DNA of 64,000 nucleotides from the NCBI GenBank assembly GCA_965248835.1, contig CBDFLJ010000001.1:896001-960000 (forward strand), given 5' to 3'. The stretch's first letter is position 1. Every line of letters begins with the position of its first letter. The translations under genes were made by a program, and so were the position numbers. Positions 7,022-46,627 of this stretch are shown here, one piece after another. This DNA is from Alphaproteobacteria bacterium (lineage in GTDB: Bacteria; Pseudomonadota; Alphaproteobacteria; MPNO01). Under the pieces are notes generated by a model, which worked only from the letters and a program-made list of their open reading frames with translations, did no database searches and was not told the origin of the DNA.

Positions 7022-8095
7022 ATGGACGACCTCGAAAAGCTTCGCACCGATCTGCTGGCGCGGATCGCGGCGGCGGACCTCGATGCGCTTGAGGCCCTGC
7101 GCGTCGAGGCGCTCGGCCGCAAGGGCCGCATCACCGAGCTGATGAAAGGCCTGGGCAGCCTTGCGGCCGAGGAGCGCAAGGCGGCCGGCCAGGCGCTCAA
7201 CGCGCTCAAGAGCGTCATCGCCGAGGCGATCGATGCCAGGCGCGCCGGGCTGGAAAGCACGACGCTCGGCGCCCGCCTGGCCGAGGAGCGGATCGACATC
7301 ACCCTGCCGGCGCGCCCGGCGCCGGACGGCCGGATCCATCCGATCAGCCAAGCCATCGAAGAGATGGCGGCGATCTTCTGCCAGATGGGCTTCGCGGTGG
7401 CCGAGGGGCCGGACATCGAGGACGATTTCCACAACTTCACCGCGCTGAACATCCCGCCCGAGCACCCCGCGCGCCAGGACCATGACACGTTCTACCTGCC
7501 CGAGCGCGCGGACGGCACCCGCGCGCTGCTGCGCACCCACACCTCGCCGGTGCAGATCCGCGCCATGCGCAGCGGCGCGGCGCCGTTCAGGATCATCGTG
7601 CCCGGGCGCACCTACCGGGCCGATCACGACGCCACCCACTCGCCGATGTTCCACCAGATCGAAGGGCTGGTCATCGACGAGACCACCCATATGGGCCATC
7701 TCAAGGGCTGCCTGATCGAGTTCTGCCGCGCCTTTTTCGGGCTCGACGACCTGCCGGTGCGGTTCCGACCGAGCTTCTTTCCGTTCACCGAGCCCTCCGC
7801 GGAGGTCGATATCGGCTGTGCGCGCTCGGCCGACGGGCTGAGAATCGGCGCGGGCGGCGATTGGCTGGAGATCCTGGGCTGCGGCATGGTCCATCCGAAG
7901 GTGCTCGAGAATTGCGGCATCGATGCCGGCCGCTACCAGGGCTTCGCCTTCGGGTTGGGGGTCGAGCGGGTGGCGATGCTCAAATACGGCATCCCGGATC
8001 TCAGGACGTTCTACGAGTCCGACCTCAGGTGGCTGCGCCATTACGGGTTCGCGGCACTCGACGTGCCGACCATGACTGCCGGAGTGGGCGCGTGA
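7022..8095 (+). CDS. pheS: Phenylalanine--tRNA ligase alpha subunit
   Basis: [41 protein letters not shown]. Confidence 0.98.
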
Positions 8096-10497
8096 AGTTC
8101 ACCCTGTCCTGGCTGCTCTTGCATCTCGACACCGCCGCCGCACCAGCCGAGATCGGCGAGAGACTGACCACCATCGGACTGGAGGTCGAGAACATCGAGG
8201 ACCGCGGCAGGGCGCTGGCCGATTTCGTCGTCGGCGACATCGTCCAGGCCAGGCGGCATCCCAATGCCGACCGCCTGCTTGTGTGCACCGTCGACATCGG
8301 CGGCGGCGAGCGGTTCGAAGTGGTCTGCGGCGCCCCCAACGCTCGCGCGGGCATGAAGGGCATCTTCGCGCGCGCGGGCAGCTACATCCCGGGCTCGGGC
8401 ATCACGCTCAAAAAGACCAGGATCCGCGGCGTGGAAAGCAGCGGCATGCTGTGCTCGGAGCGCGAGCTCGGCCTGTCCGAGGAGCACGAAGGGATCATCG
8501 ACCTGGACGGCGGCTTCGCCGCGGGAACCCCCGCCCCGGCCGCGCTCGGCCTGACCGATCCGATCTTCGAGATCGCGCTGACCCCGAACCGGGCCGACTG
8601 CGCGGGCGTGCGCGGCATCGCCCGCGACCTCGCCGCGTCGGGACTCGGCAGCCTCAAGCCGCTGGACCTGTCGCCGGTCGCCGGGACTTTTGCAAGTCCG
8701 GTCGCCTGGAAGCGGGATCTCCCGGCCGGCGCCGAGGATGCCTGCCCAATGGTGGTCGGGCGCACGTTCCGCGGCGTAACCAACGGGCCGAGCCCGCCGT
8801 GGCTGCAGGACCGGCTGAGCGCGATCGGGCTGCGCCCGATCTCCGCCCTGGTCGACATCACCAACTACGTCACCTTCGACCTCGCCCGGCCACTCCACGT
8901 CTTCGATGTGGACCGCATCCAGGGCGACCTGACGATGCGTCTGGCCCGCCCCGGCGAGGCGATCGCGGCGCTGGACGGGCGTGACTATGCGCTCGAGGAC
9001 GGCATGACGGTGATTGCCGACGAGGCCGGCGTGCTCGCGATCGGCGGCATCATGGGCGGCGAGAAGTCGGGCTGCAGCGAGGCGACGACCAACGTCTTCC
9101 TCGAGGTCGCGCTGTTCGATCCGGTGCGCACGGCGATGACCGGGCGCAAGCTCGGCATCATGTCCGATGCCCGCTACCGCTTCGAGCGCGGCGTTGATCC
9201 AACCTCGGCGCTTTGGGGGGCCGAGGTTGCCGCCAGGCTGATCCTGCAAATCTGCGGCGGCGAGGCAAGCGCGTTGAGCATCGCCGGCGAAGAGCCCCGC
9301 TGGCAACGCAGCCTCGACCTGCGCAGCGCCCGCATTGCCTCGCTCGGCGGGCTTGCGCTGGCCGACGGCGAGCCCGGCCGCATCCTCGGCAGGCTCGGCT
9401 TCGAGGTCGAGGACAAGGGCGAGATGCTGAGTGTGGCGGTCCCGCCCTGGCGAGCCGATGTCGAGGGCGACGCCGACCTGGTGGAGGAGGTCCTGCGCAT
9501 CCACGGCTACGACGCCATCCCGGCAACCCCGCTGCGAGCCGAGACCGCGGTGCCGGCGCCGGCCTGGTCGGGCGCCCAGGCCCGGCGCGCCCGCGCGCGC
9601 CGCGCGCTTGCCGCCAACGGCCTGATCGAGGCGCTGACCTTCTCCTTCATGCCCGCCGGCCGTGCGGCTTCCTTCGGGGCGCCGGATCCGGACCTGGTGC
9701 TGGCCAACCCGATCAGCGCCGATCTCGACAGGATGCGCCCCTCGATCCTGCCCAACCTGCTCCAGGCGGCCGAGCGCAACACCGCGCGCGGCCTGCCCGA
9801 CATTGCATTGTTCGAGATCGGCCCGCAGTTCGAGCCGGGAACCGGCGGCGGCCAGTCGCTGGTCGCCGCAGGCATCCGGGTCGGCGAGGCCGGCGCGCGC
9901 CACTGGTCGGAGCGCGCACGGGCGGTCGATGCCTATGACGCCAAGGCCGACGCGCTCGCCGCGCTCGGCGCGGCGGGCGCGCCGGTCGGCAGCCTGCGGA
10001 TCGAAAGCGCGGCGCCGTCGTGGTATCACCCGGGCCGATCCGGCGCGCTGATGCTGGGGCCCAAGCCGCTCGCTTGGTTCGGGGAGATCCATCCCGGCGT
10101 CCTCGCCGGCCTCGATCTGCGCGGCCGCGCAGTCGCTTTCGAGGTCATGCTCGATGCGGTGCCGCCGCCCAAGGCGGCGAAAGCGGCCGCTCGGCCGATG
10201 CTGCACATGGCGGCACTCCAGCCGGTGGTGCGCGATTTCGCCTTCGTGGTCGATGAGGATACCCAAGCCGCTTCGGTGCTGCGGGCGGCGCGCGGCGCGG
10301 AGAAGACGCTGGTCAGCGATGTCGCGCTGTTCGACGTCTATCGCGGGCCGGAGCTCGGCGATGCCAAGAAATCGCTGGCGCTGGCGGTGACTCTGCAGCC
10401 GCGCGAGGCGACATTGACCGATGCCGAGATCGAGGCAGTGGCCGGTCGCATCGTCGCCGCGGTGTCCAAGGCGACCGGCGCGGTCCTGCGCGGGTGA
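8092..10497 (+). CDS. pheT: Phenylalanine--tRNA ligase beta subunit
   Basis: GTG start overlapping the pheS stop (GTGA). KFTLSWL, HPNADRL, VCGAPN, TPNRADC, RFERGVD, RDFAFVV. Confidence 0.97.
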
Positions 10498-41733: not shown

Positions 41734-42501
41734 GTGAGCCAGGACCATCCGAGTGATGAGATCGCAACGCAGCCGGATGCCGCCCGCAAGGGTGGTTCCG
41801 GCATCTATCGGCTCCTGCCGATCGTCGTGCTGGCCGCCGGGCTGATCGCCTTCTTCGCCTTCGATCTCGACCGGTTCGTCACGCTGGATGCGCTCAAGAT
41901 CCACCGCTCGTTTCTGCAAGGCTGGGTCGCCTCGCAAGGCGCGATGGCCTGGCTGATCTTCGGGCTGATCTATTTCGGCGCGGTGGCGCTGTCGATCCCT
42001 GGAGGCGTCATCCTGACCATAGCCGGCGGGTTCCTGTTCGGTCCCTATGTCGCGACCGGCGTCGTCGTCATCGGGGCGACCTGCGGGGCGACCGTCCTGT
42101 TCCTCGCCGCCCGTTACGCCTTCGCCGATATCCTGCGCCGCAAGGCGGGCACGGCGATGAGGCGCATGGAAGACGGGTTCCGGACCAACGCGCTGAGCTA
42201 CATGCTGGTGCTCCGCCTGGTGCCGCTGTTCCCGTTCTGGCTGGTCAACCTGGTGCCGGCTTTCCTGGGCGTTAGCATCAAGACCTACGTCATCGGCACG
42301 CTGGTCGGCATCATCCCGGGCACGTTCGTCTACGCGCTGGTCGGCGATGGGGCCGGCGCGGTGCTCGATGCCGGCGAGGACCTCAATCTCGGGATCATAT
42401 TCGAGCCCCGCTTCCTGGCGCCGATCATCGGGCTTGCGGCGCTCGCCTGCATCCCGATTCTCTACAAACGGATCACCGCGCGCGGCGGCAAGCCAGGCTG
42501 A
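41734..42501 (+). CDS. TVP38/TMEM64 (DedA/VTT-domain) membrane protein
   Basis: SIPGG..LT..GGFLFG, GAT.GA...F..AR, LRLVPLFPFWLVN, T..GIIPG. Confidence 0.9.
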   Translation: MSQDHPSDEIATQPDAARKGGSGIYRLLPIVVLAAGLIAFFAFDLDRFVTLDALKIHRSFLQGWVASQGAMAWLIFGLIYFGAVALSIPGGVILTIAGGFLFGPYVATGVVVIGATCGATVLFLAARYAFADILRRKAGTAMRRMEDGFRTNALSYMLVLRLVPLFPFWLVNLVPAFLGVSIKTYVIGTLVGIIPGTFVYALVGDGAGAVLDAGEDLNLGIIFEPRFLAPIIGLAALACIPILYKRITARGGKPG

Positions 42502-42524: not shown

Positions 42525-43958
42525 ATGCAACAAATGCCCGAGCGGCATCGCGTGGATATCTGCGTCATCGGCGCGGGCTCCGGCGGCCTGTCGGTGGCCG
42601 CGGCCGCCTCGCAGATGGGCGCATCGACCGTCCTGATCGAGCGCGACAGGATGGGCGGGGACTGCCTGAATGTCGGCTGCGTGCCCTCCAAGGCGATGAT
42701 CGCGGCCGCGCACGCCGCCCATGCGGCGCGCACCGCTGCCCCGTTCGGCATCCGCCTGGCGGAGCCGGAGATCGATTTCGCCGCCGTCCACGATCACGTC
42801 CACGGGGTGATCGCCTCCATCGCACCGCACGATTCGGTCGCGCGGTTCGAGGCGTTGGGGGTCACGGTGATCGCCGCCTCGGCCCGGTTTACCGGGCCGC
42901 GCACGGTGGTTGCCGGCGATCGCGAGATCACCGCGCGGCGGTTCGTTATCGCGACCGGCTCCAGGCCCGTGGTCCCGCCGATCCCCGGCCTGGAGGAGGT
43001 ACCCTACCTGACCAACGAGACGGTGTTCGAGCGCACCAGCGCACCGGGGCACCTGGTCGTGATCGGCGGCGGGCCGATCGGTATCGAGCTCGCCCAGGCC
43101 CATCGCCGCCTGGGCGCGGCAGTGACGGTGCTGGAGATGTTCACCGTGCTGGGCAAGGACGACCCCGAGCTCGCCGAGGTGGTCAAGGTCCGGCTCGCCA
43201 AGGAAGGCCTCACGCTGCTTGAGAGCATCAACATTCTCAAGGTCGCCAGGAACGGCCGCGGCGCGGCGATCGAGATCGAGCAGGACGGCGAAGCGCAGAC
43301 GATCGAGGCCTCGGACATCCTCGTCGCCGCCGGGCGGCGGCCCAATATCGAAGGGCTCGGCCTCGATGAGGCGGGGATCGCCCACACGCCGCGCGGGATC
43401 ACTATCGATCGGCGCCTGCTGACCACAAACCGGCGGGTGTTTGCGATCGGCGACGTCGCGGGGCCCTACCAGTTCACCCACATGGCCGGCTATCACGCCG
43501 GCATCGTCATCCGCAACGCGCTGTTCCGGCTGCCTGCCAAGGTGGACCACCGCGCCGTTCCCTGGGTGACCTACACCGATCCCGAACTCGCGCATGTCGG
43601 CATGACCGAGGCCGACGCCAAACAGCGCGTCGGCGCCATCCGCGTGTTGCGCTTTCCCTACGCCGAGAACGACCGGGCCAGCGCCGAACGGCAGACCGAC
43701 GGCTTCGTCAAGGTGATCACCTCGGCCAGGGGCAAGGTCCTGGGCGCCGGCATCGTGGGCGCCCATGCGGGTGAGCTGATTCAGACCTGGATCCTGCCGG
43801 TCGCGCGCGGTCTTCACATCAAGCATGTCGCCGGGCTGATCATGCCTTACCCGACGCTGGGCGAGATCAACAAGCGGGCGGCCGGCAGCTATTTCACGCC
43901 GACCCTGTTCGGCGATCGGACCAGACGCGTCGTTCGGCTGCTTGCCCGGCTGGGCTGA
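42525..43958 (+). CDS. Flavoprotein disulfide reductase (dihydrolipoamide dehydrogenase/mercuric reductase-like)
   Basis: VIGAGSGG, redox-active GGDCLNVGCVPSK, IATGS, GGGPIG.E, GD, YPT. No C-terminal Cys-Cys pair. Confidence 0.9.
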   Translation: MQQMPERHRVDICVIGAGSGGLSVAAAASQMGASTVLIERDRMGGDCLNVGCVPSKAMIAAAHAAHAARTAAPFGIRLAEPEIDFAAVHDHVHGVIASIAPHDSVARFEALGVTVIAASARFTGPRTVVAGDREITARRFVIATGSRPVVPPIPGLEEVPYLTNETVFERTSAPGHLVVIGGGPIGIELAQAHRRLGAAVTVLEMFTVLGKDDPELAEVVKVRLAKEGLTLLESINILKVARNGRGAAIEIEQDGEAQTIEASDILVAAGRRPNIEGLGLDEAGIAHTPRGITIDRRLLTTNRRVFAIGDVAGPYQFTHMAGYHAGIVIRNALFRLPAKVDHRAVPWVTYTDPELAHVGMTEADAKQRVGAIRVLRFPYAENDRASAERQTDGFVKVITSARGKVLGAGIVGAHAGELIQTWILPVARGLHIKHVAGLIMPYPTLGEINKRAAGSYFTPTLFGDRTRRVVRLLARLG

Positions 43959-44119
43959 TCGCGATCACGATCTGTTGAGGACGGGTGAGGGGTATTGATT
44001 TGGCGGCGCGCCGCTGTCGGTATCTAATCGGTTCCGCCAACATGGGTCCGGTTCGCCTGGGACGCCATAACCGCCGGGGTTGCGAGCCGACCCGGCAGTA
44101 CACGGGACGGGAGGTTTTC

Positions 44120-44398
44120 ATGATCCGTAAGACAGTCACGACGCTCAGCATTCTCGCCATGGCCAGCGCGACCGCCGCACTGCCGGCAGCCGCGGCCGGC
44201 GACACCGGCATGGCCAACACCCAGGTCGCAGCCTGCAACCCGTGCGCGGCCAAGAAGTGCAACCCGTGCGCCGCCAAGGCCTGCAACCCCTGCGCCGCCA
44301 AGGCCTGCAACCCGTGCGCCGCCAAAGCCTGCAACCCGTGCGCGGCGAAAAACCCGTGCGCCGCCAAGGCCTGCAACCCCTGCGCCGCCAAGAAATAG
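44120..44398 (+). CDS. Small exported Cys-rich repeat protein (92 aa; 7 x NPCAAK, six CxxC)
   Basis: GGGAGG SD then ATG 44120. Signal-peptide-like N terminus MIRKTVTTLSILAMASATAALPAAAA. Repeat units vary mainly at synonymous third positions in this frame. Followed by a hairpin. Confidence 0.85.
   Translation: MIRKTVTTLSILAMASATAALPAAAAGDTGMANTQVAACNPCAAKKCNPCAAKACNPCAAKACNPCAAKACNPCAAKNPCAAKACNPCAAKK
44234..44395 (+). repeat. Coding tandem repeat, about 24-nt unit TGCAACCC(G/C)TGCGC(C/G)GC(C/G)AA(G/A)(GCC), 7 copies
   Basis: Read directly from the sequence. Two units are shortened by one codon each. Confidence 0.95.
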
Positions 44399-44421
44399 AA
44401 CAGACCGCCAAAGGTCCCGAG

Positions 44422-44452
44422 GGCGCCGCCAAAGAGGCTGTTTGGCGGCGCC
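44422..44452 (+). terminator. Stem-loop (putative terminator) after the Cys-rich gene
   Basis: Perfect 12-bp inverted repeat GGCGCCGCCAAA-N7-TTTGGCGGCGCC. No strong U-tract follows. Confidence 0.55.
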
Positions 44453-44517
44453 ATCCGTTCCCTGCCCCGGGCTGAACGGTTCGATTCGCCGCCGATCCGC
44501 TCTACTATGCGCCGGCC

Positions 44518-45984
44518 ATGGTCGCGCACAACGCCGGATTTAAGCGCTTGGCGAGCGGACGCCGCTTCTGGACCGGGCTTTCCGCCCGCCTGCTCGTGCT
44601 GACGATCTTTTTCGTGATGCTGAGCGAGGTGTTCATCTACGCACCCTCGATCGGCCGTTACCGCCTGGTCTACCTGCAGGAGCGGATCGCCGCCGCCCAC
44701 CTCGCCTCGCTGGCCGTCCAGGGGCCGCCCGAAGGGACCATCACCAAGCCGCGGTTGCGCGAGCTGCTCGATCACGCGCGCTCACACGGTGTGGTGCTGC
44801 GGCGCCAAGCCTCCAAAGCGCTGATGCTGAGCGGCGATATGCCGCCGCGAGTCGACGACACCTACGACCTGCGCCGGACCGAGTTCTTCTCTCTGATCTG
44901 GGAAGCGCTGATGGTGTTGGCGGGCGAGAACAACCGGGTGATTCGGGTGATCGCACCCTCGCCCAAGTCGCCCGGCGTCCTGGTCGAGACCATCATCGAC
45001 GAGGCCCCGATGCGGATGGAGATGTTCGATTACTCCAAACGCATCCTGCTGCTGTCGATCGTCATCTCGCTGATCACCGCCTCGCTGGTCTATCTCAGCC
45101 TGCAGCTTCTTTTCGTCCGGCCGATGCTCGGCATCACCCAGTCGATGACCGCCTTCCGCGCCGACCCCGACGATGCCAGGGGAATGATCAAGCCGTCGCG
45201 GCGGTCCGATGAGATCGGACGCGCCCAGCGCGAGCTGGCGAACATGCAGGACGGGCTGCGCACCGCGCTTCAGCAGCGCTCGCGCCTGGCTGCGCTCGGC
45301 ACCGCGGTGGCCAAGATCAACCACGACCTTCGCAATATCCTGGCCAGCGCTCAGCTCGTCTCGGACCATATCGAGCGCAGCGCCGACCCCAAGGTGCGCA
45401 AGATCGCCCCCACCCTGCTGGGCGCGCTGGACCGGGCCATCAAGCTGTGCAGCCAGACGCTCGCCTATGCCCATGACGGCACGCCGCCGCCGGTCCACGC
45501 CGCCTTCGACCTCCGCGCGCTGGCCGAGGAGGCGGGCGGCGACATCCTGGAATCCCGGTTCCCCGATGCCGTCTTCGAATGCATCCTGCCGCCGGGCTTC
45601 GAAATCGTGGCCGACCGCGACCAGCTCTACCGGGTGCTCAGCAACATCGCGCTCAACGCCTATCAGGCCGGGGCCGGCCGGGTCGCGGTCTCGGCGCGCC
45701 GCACCGACACCGCCGCCCTGATCGAGATCGCCGACGACGGGCCGGGCCTGTCGGCCAGGGTGCGCGAGAAGCTGTTCCAGCCGTTTTCCGGCTCCGGGCG
45801 GGCCGGCGGCACCGGGCTCGGGCTGTCGATCGCACGCGATCTGATGCGCGGCCACGGCGGCGATGTCCGGCTGGTTCAAACCGGCGAGAGCGGCACCGTC
45901 TTCGAGCTCGAACTGCCGTCGGAGGCCCGCGCGGGCGCGCGCCGGCCGGTCAGGTCCGGGTCCCGGCCGCACCAGGATGCGTGA
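44518..45984 (+). CDS. HAMP-domain sensor histidine kinase (no response regulator in the window)
   Basis: Two TMs, HAMP (R.DEIG), H-box AKINHDLRNIL, N-box N...NA, DDGPG, F.PF, GTGLGL. Confidence 0.92.
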   Translation: MVAHNAGFKRLASGRRFWTGLSARLLVLTIFFVMLSEVFIYAPSIGRYRLVYLQERIAAAHLASLAVQGPPEGTITKPRLRELLDHARSHGVVLRRQASKALMLSGDMPPRVDDTYDLRRTEFFSLIWEALMVLAGENNRVIRVIAPSPKSPGVLVETIIDEAPMRMEMFDYSKRILLLSIVISLITASLVYLSLQLLFVRPMLGITQSMTAFRADPDDARGMIKPSRRSDEIGRAQRELANMQDGLRTALQQRSRLAALGTAVAKINHDLRNILASAQLVSDHIERSADPKVRKIAPTLLGALDRAIKLCSQTLAYAHDGTPPPVHAAFDLRALAEEAGGDILESRFPDAVFECILPPGFEIVADRDQLYRVLSNIALNAYQAGAGRVAVSARRTDTAALIEIADDGPGLSARVREKLFQPFSGSGRAGGTGLGLSIARDLMRGHGGDVRLVQTGESGTVFELELPSEARAGARRPVRSGSRPHQDA

Positions 45985-46012: not shown

Positions 46013-46627
46013 TCAACCTTTCCGGCGCGCCGTGATATGGAAGATATGCCAGTGCTTGGGCTGGCCGCGCGGGGTGACGCTGTCGTCCTCCTCCTCACGG
46101 AAGAACTCGATCGCGAAGCCGGCGAACAACGCTTCGGCCTCGCCGCGGGTGTGGAAGGTGATCGACGGATCGCCGAACCATTCGTCGCGCTCGCCATAGA
46201 GCTGGCCCGCGAACCGCCCGCCGGGCGCCAGCGCGCCGACGATCCTTGCCCACAGCCCGGGGAAGGAGGCGGGACGGCAAAGCGGCAGCGCGAAGCTCGA
46301 ATTGATCAGGTCCGCGCTCGGGATTTCGGCATCCTCGAAACCGCGGACAGCCGCTTCCAGCCGGCCGGTCGCCGGCAGGTCTTCGCGGGCCCGCAGCGCC
46401 TCGACCGCGGCGGCCTGGGCATCCAGCGCCAGCACGTGCCAGCCGCGGCGCAGCAGCTCGACGACGTCGCGCCCGCCGCCGCAGCCGAGGTCGACGGCGA
46501 ACCCCGGCCCGGCTTGCGCATCAAACGCATCCAGAGCACGGATCAGCGTCTCGCGCGGCGGCCGGGCACCGGTCTTGGCGTAATAGCCGCGCCAGTCCTC
46601 GGCTGCGGTGATCCGCCCGCCGCTCAC
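46013..46627 (-). CDS. Class I SAM-dependent methyltransferase (TehB-like)
   Basis: AVDLGCGGGRD...LL.RGW.V.A.D, L.PGG.F.GQ. Confidence 0.85.
   Translation of the reverse strand: MSGGRITAAEDWRGYYAKTGARPPRETLIRALDAFDAQAGPGFAVDLGCGGGRDVVELLRRGWHVLALDAQAAAVEALRAREDLPATGRLEAAVRGFEDAEIPSADLINSSFALPLCRPASFPGLWARIVGALAPGGRFAGQLYGERDEWFGDPSITFHTRGEAEALFAGFAIEFFREEEDDSVTPRGQPKHWHIFHITARRKG

Follow-up and report, generated by a model that had tools for sequence, protein, structure and literature searches.

What does a small protein composed largely of cysteine-bearing hexapeptides do for the bacterium that encodes it, and with which partners would it act? The question is raised by a gene at 44120..44398 (plus strand, stop codon included) of a 64,000-nucleotide stretch of an alphaproteobacterial genome (GCA_965248835.1, contig CBDFLJ010000001.1, positions 896,001 to 960,000), hereafter the window. 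Its 92-residue product, P0001, represents in free-standing form an undescribed NPCAAK repeat module, which also occurs on haem proteins and whose carriers nearly always encode DUF6969 as well. The gene is one scattered member of a widespread system of NPC cysteine repeats and haem proteins linked to DUF6969, in which P0001 may serve as a periplasmic poly-thiolate arm.

The NPCAAK gene and its product

The coding sequence is supported by its translation, a G+C fraction at third codon positions (GC3) of 0.89 and a search of similarly long proteins, which gave 453 relatives (E <= 0.001), none of them named beyond 'hypothetical'. An earlier reading of the sequence alone (the sequence-only reading) had described a strong Shine-Dalgarno site, a signal-peptide-like N terminus and a lysine-rich tract of seven NPCAAK units with 13 cysteines, six CxxC motifs and no aromatic residues, all of which we recover. 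GGGAGG lies at 44109..44114 (plus strand), with the ATG 5 nt further on. P0001 contains 13 Cys, 6 CxxC motifs (all CNPC), 7 NPCAAK hexapeptides, 10 Lys, 30 Ala and 3 Met among its 92 residues, lacks F, W, Y and H altogether, and ends in CAAKK. Repeat finding and composition place the seven (A/K)(C)NPCAAK units with their 13 Cys at residues 39-92 (44234..44395, plus strand), and Tandem Repeats Finder reports 7.0 copies of a 24-nt period at 44231-44392. Variation between the repeats, described earlier as mostly synonymous, is entirely so within the hexapeptides (7/7 variant codons), and in the tract only the spacer (K, A or none) varies non-synonymously. In comparisons with five orthologs, synonymous and non-synonymous difference codons number 21:12, 23:20, 28:21, 26:21 and 31:23. 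This is a real gene whose peptide is under purifying selection.

By hydropathy, residues 1-26 (44120..44197, plus strand) fit a Sec-type signal peptide, with a basic start (MIRK, including R3 and K4), a hydrophobic core and an AAA↓G site. By alignment, a variable linker follows (residues 27-38; 44198..44233, plus strand) and closes with a conserved VQ[IVL]AA before the first cysteine. Among 21 aligned family members (P0001 and 20 relatives), L21, P22 and A24 of the signal segment are nearly invariant, as is Q35 of the linker, while A37 is invariant; a VQ[IVL]AA-type motif likewise begins the repeat tract of fused forms. c-type cytochromes are periplasmic proteins. Because the hydropathy profile, the conservation in 20 relatives and the fusion of the repeat to c-type cytochromes all point the same way, P0001 is probably exported by the Sec pathway. 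V-A-A-C39 resembles a lipobox, yet lies 12 residues beyond the hydrophobic core with D27 between, and in betaproteobacterial members the repeats begin directly after the AxA site without such a V-A-A-C-type stretch. AlphaFold2, given a 21-row alignment, returned a predicted local distance difference test score (pLDDT) of 44.4 for P0001, with residues 23-92 below 50; the repeat tract is thus predicted to be disordered, which would fit a flexible arm.

The repeat family and its haem fusions

The 27 relatives that we examined share the layout of P0001: a signal peptide, a short linker, often VQ[IL]AAC, and then NPCAAK-type units. The CxxC arrays noted in the sequence-only reading are not shared by the whole family, as many relatives have one Cys per unit; because several carry such single-Cys units (e.g., xNPCAAKTx), the conserved element appears to be NPCAA[KR] rather than CxxC. 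In one ortholog (genome G003, locus L028:8074-8340) the LIQVAAC entry motif and the first repeat units are internally duplicated.

A further 649 relatives were found among longer proteins. A manual count over the 120 of them that were listed gives about 40 with Cytochrome_P460 (PF16694), about 40 with SoxA-TsdA_cyt-c and/or CCP_MauG (PF21342, PF03150), 4 with YceI and 3 with LysM. In the fused forms, long NPC tracts flank the haem domain on both sides. The repeat is a portable module, carried by periplasmic haem proteins with at least two different folds. Of these, the CCP type forms a single haem domain that, in a PDB sequence search, matches only the haem-binding stretch of di-haem peroxidases; the P460-type domain gave no PDB sequence match.

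The same genome carries an armed cytochrome of its own. P0122, a 347-residue NPC paralog, is encoded on the minus strand 24 kb downstream of the NPCAAK gene and outside the window (G000:C1:963698-964741, equal to L130:8698-9741). Two NPC tracts split by SSNCVVPRL, a linker motif also seen in distant fused relatives, precede a P460-like domain with a CHECH motif (Pfam, 28.8 bits vs a cut-off of 27). P0122, too, has unrelated neighbours.

Genome-wide association with DUF6969

DUF6969 (PF22308) is encoded in this genome on another contig (G000:C2:1551355-1551966, 279 bits), adjoining an EamA transporter and a DinB-type polymerase. Among 41 related genomes, 13 are repeat-positive and 13 DUF6969-positive, with 11 common to both; the two relatives with the repeat only have genomes that are 64% and 79% complete. 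We then consider a sample of 301 genomes of the class, in which DUF6969 occurs in 69 and a P0001 match at E <= 1e-6 in 32, a query that undercounts repeat-positive genomes. DUF6969 is present in 30/32 repeat-positive and 39/269 repeat-negative genomes of this sample, a tally in which the unpublished genome G246 counts as one row, DUF6969-positive and repeat-negative. Because the genomes are related, the co-occurrence figures overstate independence and none of them is a probability. The repeat gene and DUF6969 lie within 6 kb of each other in 15 of the 30 genomes that hold both. Because DUF6969 is present here even though the parts are scattered, the tie between NPCAAK repeat and DUF6969 appears to hold genome-wide, as a strong association that does not depend on adjacency alone.

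We also inspected 20 DUF6969 loci, 19 of them from repeat-negative genomes. An exported Cys-repeat open reading frame (ORF) was found at 6/20, and the other 14 showed no Cys-rich ORF within ~3 kb. Around one DUF6969 match (L153:3787-4173, genome G097) lies a gene for a 128-residue exported protein of CSG/CGG/HAGDCGG repeats with no NPCAAK; because of this CSG/CGG-type protein, DUF6969 is suggested to pair with more than one kind of Cys-repeat protein. In genomes G039 and G032, a CxxCH-bearing ORF of 123-129 residues (L131:9959-10330 and L132:9805-10194) comes after DUF6969 in opposite orientation and looks like a cytochrome c by eye; no such ORF stands beside the DUF6969 gene of the present genome.

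The DUF6969 alignment shows no N-terminal hydrophobic segment and no signal peptide. H80, H82, E90, G92, H93, H95 and H127 are invariant, and H62, D67 and H91 nearly so. The AlphaFold2 model is confident (pLDDT 91.2, predicted template modelling score 0.90), and its comparison with solved folds gave no convincing match (best Foldseek E 0.53; best VIA-align Z 3.3 over 48,161 chains). A scan of seven long ORFs revealed no domain fusions, their extra length being upstream ORF extension. Prediction of a complex of DUF6969 with P0001 gave no usable answer (score 0.01, mark 0.32), and a literature search returned no paper naming DUF6969.

Gene neighbourhoods of distant relatives

To survey distant relatives we took one genome per species with P0001 as the single query, which gave 78 loci from Alpha-, Beta- and Gammaproteobacteria, Nitrospinota, Rokubacteria, Methylomirabilia and Planctomycetota. 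Judging by name, many carriers are denitrifiers or nitrite oxidisers; culturable ones include Denitrobaculum tricleocarpae, Denitromonas, Sedimenticola hydrogenitrophicus and Hahella. A small form (160 residues or less, no CxxCH) is present in 40/78 loci and a haem form (CxxCH-bearing) in 53/78; 20 loci have both, and in 16 of these less than 250 bp separates the pair.

Neighbours were grouped by all-against-all BLAST and single-linkage clustering of crude ORFs, and cluster representatives were scanned against Pfam and NCBIfam; two clusters are heterogeneous, cluster 8 mixing VTT-domain proteins with pyridine-nucleotide-disulfide oxidoreductases (PNDR) and cluster 11 mixing unrelated kinases. 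DUF6969 is a neighbour in 30/78 loci, its median distance to the repeat gene being 161 bp. A YeeE/YedE-type Sulf_transp protein follows with 23 loci, DUF302 with 20, an exported 169-residue unknown protein with 17, a c554-like multihaem cytochrome with 12, VTT and/or PNDR also with 12, an FGE-sulfatase-like protein with 11 and DUF3179 with 10. Stress and redox genes are rarer: an extracytoplasmic function (ECF) sigma factor is found in 8/78 loci, a DUF3379 anti-sigma factor in 6, and a CcdA-type DsbD_TM protein, a thioredoxin and an AhpD-like CMD protein in 4 each. MerR is present in 4 loci, as is an ArsS-like radical SAM protein; MNIO and DUF2063 each appear in 3, and SCO1 in 2. At least one of six core genes is found in 46/78 loci, and in 27 of the 45 that are at least 12 kb long. 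A literature search on DUF3379 returned nothing related by title.

The PNDR beside one repeat gene (L087) is by score a genuine mercuric reductase (630 bits, MerA cut-off 600). In a betaproteobacterial locus, a 799-residue ORF ahead of the NPC gene (L105:721-3120) is suggested by the clustering to be a fusion of a VTT/DedA protein with a MerA-like oxidoreductase; since this VTT-PNDR fusion precedes the NPC gene, the VTT-PNDR-NPC order of the window is independently echoed in Betaproteobacteria. A PNDR-SelD-type fusion occurs in two loci, and a 782-residue disulfide oxidoreductase fused to an AIRS/SelD-type domain stands beside an NPC cluster in L102 (L102:3171-5519). Bufferin-type MNIO and DUF2063 genes lie a few kb from betaproteobacterial NPC/DUF6969 clusters (L095:12436-13350, L094:12925-13716). 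A histidine kinase was considered as a general partner and dropped, as its cluster is the heterogeneous cluster 11 and true orthologs of the window kinase occur only in L045, L080 and L089.

The idea of a soft-metal chelator or redox buffer, put forward in the sequence-only reading, fits these contexts, because MerA, MerR, SCO1, bufferin-type MNIO clusters, CcdA/thioredoxin and ECF sigma genes are found near relatives of P0001.

Relation to known families and systems

That P0001 has no assigned function, as had been supposed, agrees with our searches, in which no curated family, solved structure or paper matched it. Pfam gave no match at threshold; the only hit, Cornifin/SPRR (PF02389), scored 29.6 bits vs a cut-off of 34.8 and was rejected as a compositional match. 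An NCBIfam scan returned nothing useful, a PDB sequence search no match below E 0.17, and ESM Atlas neighbours were annotated 'hypothetical protein' throughout. No paper containing NPCAAK or CNPCAAK was found by full-text search, the hits listed for related strings having unrelated titles, and a search for a cysteine-rich repeat combined with cytochrome P460 found nothing.

The repeat family can be delimited by a signal peptide followed by at least three NPC[AG]A[KR]-type units, of which P0001 has seven, in a genome that encodes both DUF6969 and an NPC-armed haem protein, as this one does. By sequence, P0001 belongs to none of the metallothionein, HMA/MerP and bufferin families. It resembles metallothioneins and MerP/HMA proteins in being Cys-rich and aromatic-poor with CxxC motifs, and in that its apo form is predicted to be disordered. 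A metallothionein of the SmtA/BmtA type was nevertheless rejected: there is no Pfam match, and the signal-peptide-like N terminus and probable export of P0001 contrast with the cytosolic location of metallothioneins. HMA/MerP, marked by a ferredoxin-like domain with GMxCxxC, was set aside likewise (no Pfam match, no predicted fold), and many NPCAAK family members, unlike either group, have one Cys per repeat and no CxxC. A SoxY/SoxZ carrier was rejected for want of a Pfam match and because the C terminus is CAAKK rather than a GGCGG arm. The kinship to SoxYZ/SoxAX and TsdA would lie in a proposed Cys-bearing flexible arm working with a SoxA/TsdA-type periplasmic c-type cytochrome, and in the YeeE-type transporter and CcdA/thioredoxin genes near relatives; unlike SoxYZ, P0001 has many cysteines instead of one on a GGCGG C-terminal arm, shows no SoxY/SoxZ homology and has a P460-type partner here. 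The link to the cytochrome P460 and c'-beta family runs through P0122, whose P460 haem domain follows two NPC tracts, whereas P0001 itself has no haem motif or domain.

Exported Cys-repeat peptides such as the bufferins, which include BufA1/DUF2282 and BUF_6/12Cys, and the oxazolins have recently been recognised as a major bacterial copper-stress response. Oxazolins (HvfA, with EGKCG repeats) and bufferins are MNIO-modified, Sec-exported metallophores of the class of ribosomally synthesised and post-translationally modified peptides (RiPPs; PMC12452194). A Cys turned into a thiooxazole or an oxazolone-thioamide is the mark of these groups. P0001 is like them in being small, with a putative Sec signal peptide ahead of short repeated Cys motifs and a probable periplasmic location, and the surroundings of its relatives include stress sigma, FGE-like and mercury genes, with MNIO and DUF2063 in three loci each. 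It differs in that bufferin and oxazolin models (DUF2282, BUF_6/12Cys, EGKCG-type) in Pfam or NCBIfam gave no match at E <= 10. The sequence-only reading had noted no modifying enzyme next to the gene and had named a genome search for MNIO (DUF692) and DUF2063 as a check; MNIO (PF05114) and DUF2063 (PF09836) have 0 matches each across the 100%-complete genome, with a Caulobacter control positive. For its further view that any modification would be in trans, DUF6969 is a candidate partner other than MNIO. The constant partner of the NPC system is a protein unrelated to MNIO and of no known fold, and the repeat is also grafted onto haem proteins.

A second precedent is the hypochlorite-scavenging system MrpX/YedY(MsrP)/SigF-NrsF of Azospira suillum (PMC4436054). 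Like MrpX, P0001 would be a small periplasmic protein rich in one oxidisable residue; stress-sigma genes stand beside NPC relatives, and one relative's copy adjoins MsrP. Unlike MrpX, it has Cys for Met, a strict hexapeptide instead of mere enrichment, and a tie to DUF6969 and cytochromes. A sacrificial peptide of the MrpX type itself was rejected (3 Met among 92 residues, no sigma/anti-sigma gene adjoining).

The NPCAAK module thus combines an outward design like that of bufferins and oxazolins with an unrelated sequence and another partner, and is found in many environmental Proteobacteria, Nitrospinota, Rokubacteria and others.

Proposed mechanism and alternatives

We favour, at a probability of roughly 40%, a model in which P0001 acts in the periplasm as a poly-thiolate arm, taking up metals, metalloids or oxidants that seek thiols and operating together with an armed cytochrome. 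The protein would enter the periplasm by the Sec route as a disordered, Lys-rich poly-Cys chain, with its cysteines as the working groups, exposed on a cationic backbone. This multivalent thiolate arm or sponge would capture soft metal and metalloid ions in the first place and oxidants in the second, and the captured species, or electrons, would be handed to the NPC-armed, P460-like P0122 of the same genome. DUF6969, presumably cytoplasmic, would either mature the cysteines before export or serve the cytoplasmic side of the pathway. Hints of metals and metalloids come from the L087 MerA, from MerR, MNIO, DUF2063, SCO1 and ArsS-like genes near relatives, and from a second NPCAAK copy in genome G003 (described below). 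If the cysteines do bind metals or metalloids or relay electrons to haems, the repeat would belong to a hitherto unrecognised system in which thiols and haems work in the periplasm of bacteria that cycle nitrogen and sulfur.

Several points weigh against this model. Its three parts are unlinked here, with the gene in the window, P0122 24 kb away and DUF6969 on another contig, and the local neighbours do not need the NPCAAK gene, since the VTT-PNDR-kinase synteny persists without it in genome G007. Each metal-related neighbour is seen in fewer than half of the loci, the neighbour clusters were built from crude ORFs by single-linkage BLAST (clusters 8 and 11 being heterogeneous), and related genomes inflate the apparent independence of the co-occurrence counts. 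A Lys-rich cationic chain would be no less suited to anions than to metal cations. That N-P-C-A-A-K is so strictly kept in different phyla goes beyond the needs of a simple sponge and points to recognition by an enzyme.

The conserved hexapeptide leads to the main rival, in which DUF6969 is a cysteine-modifying metalloenzyme acting, in the manner of RiPP maturation, on NPCAAK and other Cys-repeat preproteins in the cytoplasm before Sec export, as MNIO enzymes do for bufferins and oxazolins, the modified groups then serving as ligands. We consider this rather unlikely, and regard as similarly doubtful the wider proposal that NPCAAK proteins and armed cytochromes alike are substrates of DUF6969, a His-cluster enzyme of new fold, and so form a new class of modified proteins. 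The near-obligate genomic tie (30/32 repeat-positive genomes, 15/30 within 6 kb) and the closeness of the two genes in distant loci (30/78, median 161 bp) speak for modification, as do an invariant His/Asp/Glu cluster in a protein with no N-terminal hydrophobic segment and a confident model (pLDDT 91.2) without a fold match. The 6/20 DUF6969 loci with an exported Cys-repeat ORF, one of them of the CSG/CGG type (L153), would suit an enzyme with several substrates, conservation of the hexapeptide across phyla is what a recognition motif would show, and Sec-exported EGKCG-repeat RiPPs and long MNIO substrates offer a precedent (PMC12452194). Yet no RiPP recognition element-like or DUF2063-like partner was seen with DUF6969, which is not known to catalyse any reaction; its gene here is not linked to the repeat gene, 14/20 of its inspected loci lack a Cys-rich ORF within ~3 kb, and the presence of CcdA/thioredoxin in certain clusters hints at a role for free thiols. 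If DUF6969 does modify the cysteines, it would represent a new enzyme class, and its products a new class of ribosomally made, post-translationally modified proteins with metal or redox activity in the periplasm, a parallel to the MNIO/bufferin/oxazolin systems without kinship to them.

In another reading the arms form a recyclable thiol redox buffer or donate electrons: peroxide, hypochlorite or NO-derived species would oxidise them, either directly or by way of the attached peroxidase-like or P460-like haems, and periplasmic reductant pathways would reduce them again. By analogy this would be a Cys counterpart of the Met-rich MrpX/MsrP system (PMC4436054). ECF sigma/anti-sigma pairs, CcdA with thioredoxin, AhpC/TSA-type redoxins and AhpD-like genes occur in the clusters, the CCP-type domain resembles the haem-binding stretch of di-haem peroxidases, the second small copy of G003 adjoins MsrP, and many carriers are, by name, denitrifiers or nitrite oxidisers. 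A sacrificial sink, on the other hand, would need no strictly conserved hexapeptide, such redox genes are present in few loci (CcdA 4/78, thioredoxin 4/78), and the DUF6969, YeeE/YedE, MerA/MerR and bufferin neighbours would be left unexplained, so that we judge a redox buffer unlikely. A further reading has the cysteines bear persulfide, thiosulfonate or selenotrisulfide adducts, loaded by SoxA/TsdA-like cytochromes in the way that SoxY is served by SoxAX, and feed a YeeE/YedE importer (23/78 loci). The ~40 SoxA-TsdA_cyt-c and/or CCP fusions among the 120 longer relatives listed, DUF302 in 20/78 loci, the PNDR-SelD-type fusion in two loci and SelB in this genome and 4 relatives agree with such a sulfur or selenium carrier. 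It is quite improbable, as the haem partner in this genome is of the P460 and not the SoxA type, P0001 has no SoxY/Z family match, PDB sequence matches of the haem domains gave no evidence of an axial Cys, and a check for Cys/selenocysteine exchange was negative save for one ambiguous TGA. Finally, P0001 might be a local accessory of the VTT-PNDR-kinase block, perhaps tuning the neighbouring sensor kinase from the periplasm by analogy with CpxP or ZraP. The PNDR-gene-kinase order in G002, G039, G029, G032, G003, L045 and L080, the gene-kinase order in G037 and a conserved upstream block specific to the small gene would be expected of it; true kinase orthologs, however, are its neighbours in related Alphaproteobacteria alone (among the 78 loci, L045, L080 and L089), the PNDR-kinase pair survives without the gene, and in other loci the small gene is accompanied by cytochromes and DUF6969, which makes a local role very improbable. 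The candidate readings are not all mutually exclusive.

Local neighbourhood and flanking elements

The gene is preceded on the plus strand by a conserved DedA/VTT-domain membrane protein (41734..42501; Pfam VTT_dom 84 bits, synteny) and a MerA-like FAD PNDR (42525..43958, under the MerA cut-offs), which has no Cys among the C-terminal residues examined, and is followed by a conserved orphan sensor histidine kinase (44518..45984, plus strand; profile matches, synteny). A TehB-like methyltransferase at 46013-46627 was considered and rejected (31.9 bits vs a cut-off of 218). The PNDR-small gene-kinase order is kept in G002, G039, G029, G032 and G003 (where a contig end cuts the oxidoreductase), and the gene-kinase order in G037, all as judged from N-termini; three loci of genus g12 (L029, L032, L033), with genes not callable by the GC3 filter, fall outside this statement. 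PNDR orthologs in L045 and L080 share 62% identity and the same gene order. The small gene occurs in 13/41 relatives and in 0/12 genomes of one genus; in G007, a member of that genus, oxidoreductase and kinase adjoin across a 137-bp gap with no small gene between them, so that the VTT-PNDR-kinase block is independent of the NPCAAK gene.

G003 carries a second free-standing NPCAAK copy (7933-8301 within L035:5286-9142), which adjoins MsrP, two unknown exported proteins, SCO1/SenC and a BaeS/CopS-like kinase fragment.

In the G031 ortholog, an in-frame TGA falls exactly at a Cys position of a CNPCAAK unit (L033:7967-7969), and the G031 genome encodes SelB. The TGA could be a selenocysteine codon, a nonsense mutation or a sequencing error. 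The TGA-for-Cys pattern was not found again in 132 loci, and a metagenome scan with a narrow pattern (U-AAK then NPCAAK) gave two hits, both in another frame of an unrelated repeat protein; selenocysteine use was rejected on these grounds.

A 293-residue ORF on the minus strand (43894-44775) overlaps the NPCAAK gene. Because its GC3 is low (0.74 vs 0.87-0.90 in three neighbouring genes) and it runs over intergenic DNA into part of the kinase gene, we read it as a probable shadow frame.

Upstream of the gene, a block of ~40 bp at 43964..44004 (plus strand; CACGAnnnGTTGAGnnnnGGTGAG...) is kept in 6/6 aligned orthologs and was not seen in the oxidoreductase-kinase intergenic DNA of G007, where the small gene is missing. 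It contains the half-sites GTTGAG and GGTGAG at a spacing of 10 bp, the 4.9-Mb genome has a single occurrence of its core pattern, and it is a possible promoter or operator. The downstream hairpin described in the sequence-only reading is present 3' of the stop codon as a G+C-rich 12-bp stem at 44422..44452 (plus strand), though without a U tract; the 75-nt region folds at -33.4 kcal/mol (z -2.56), and a terminator scan returned no plus-strand terminator. The string TTGGCGGCGC is found both upstream (43996-44015) and in an arm of the downstream hairpin (44439-44456), and may be a short repeated element.

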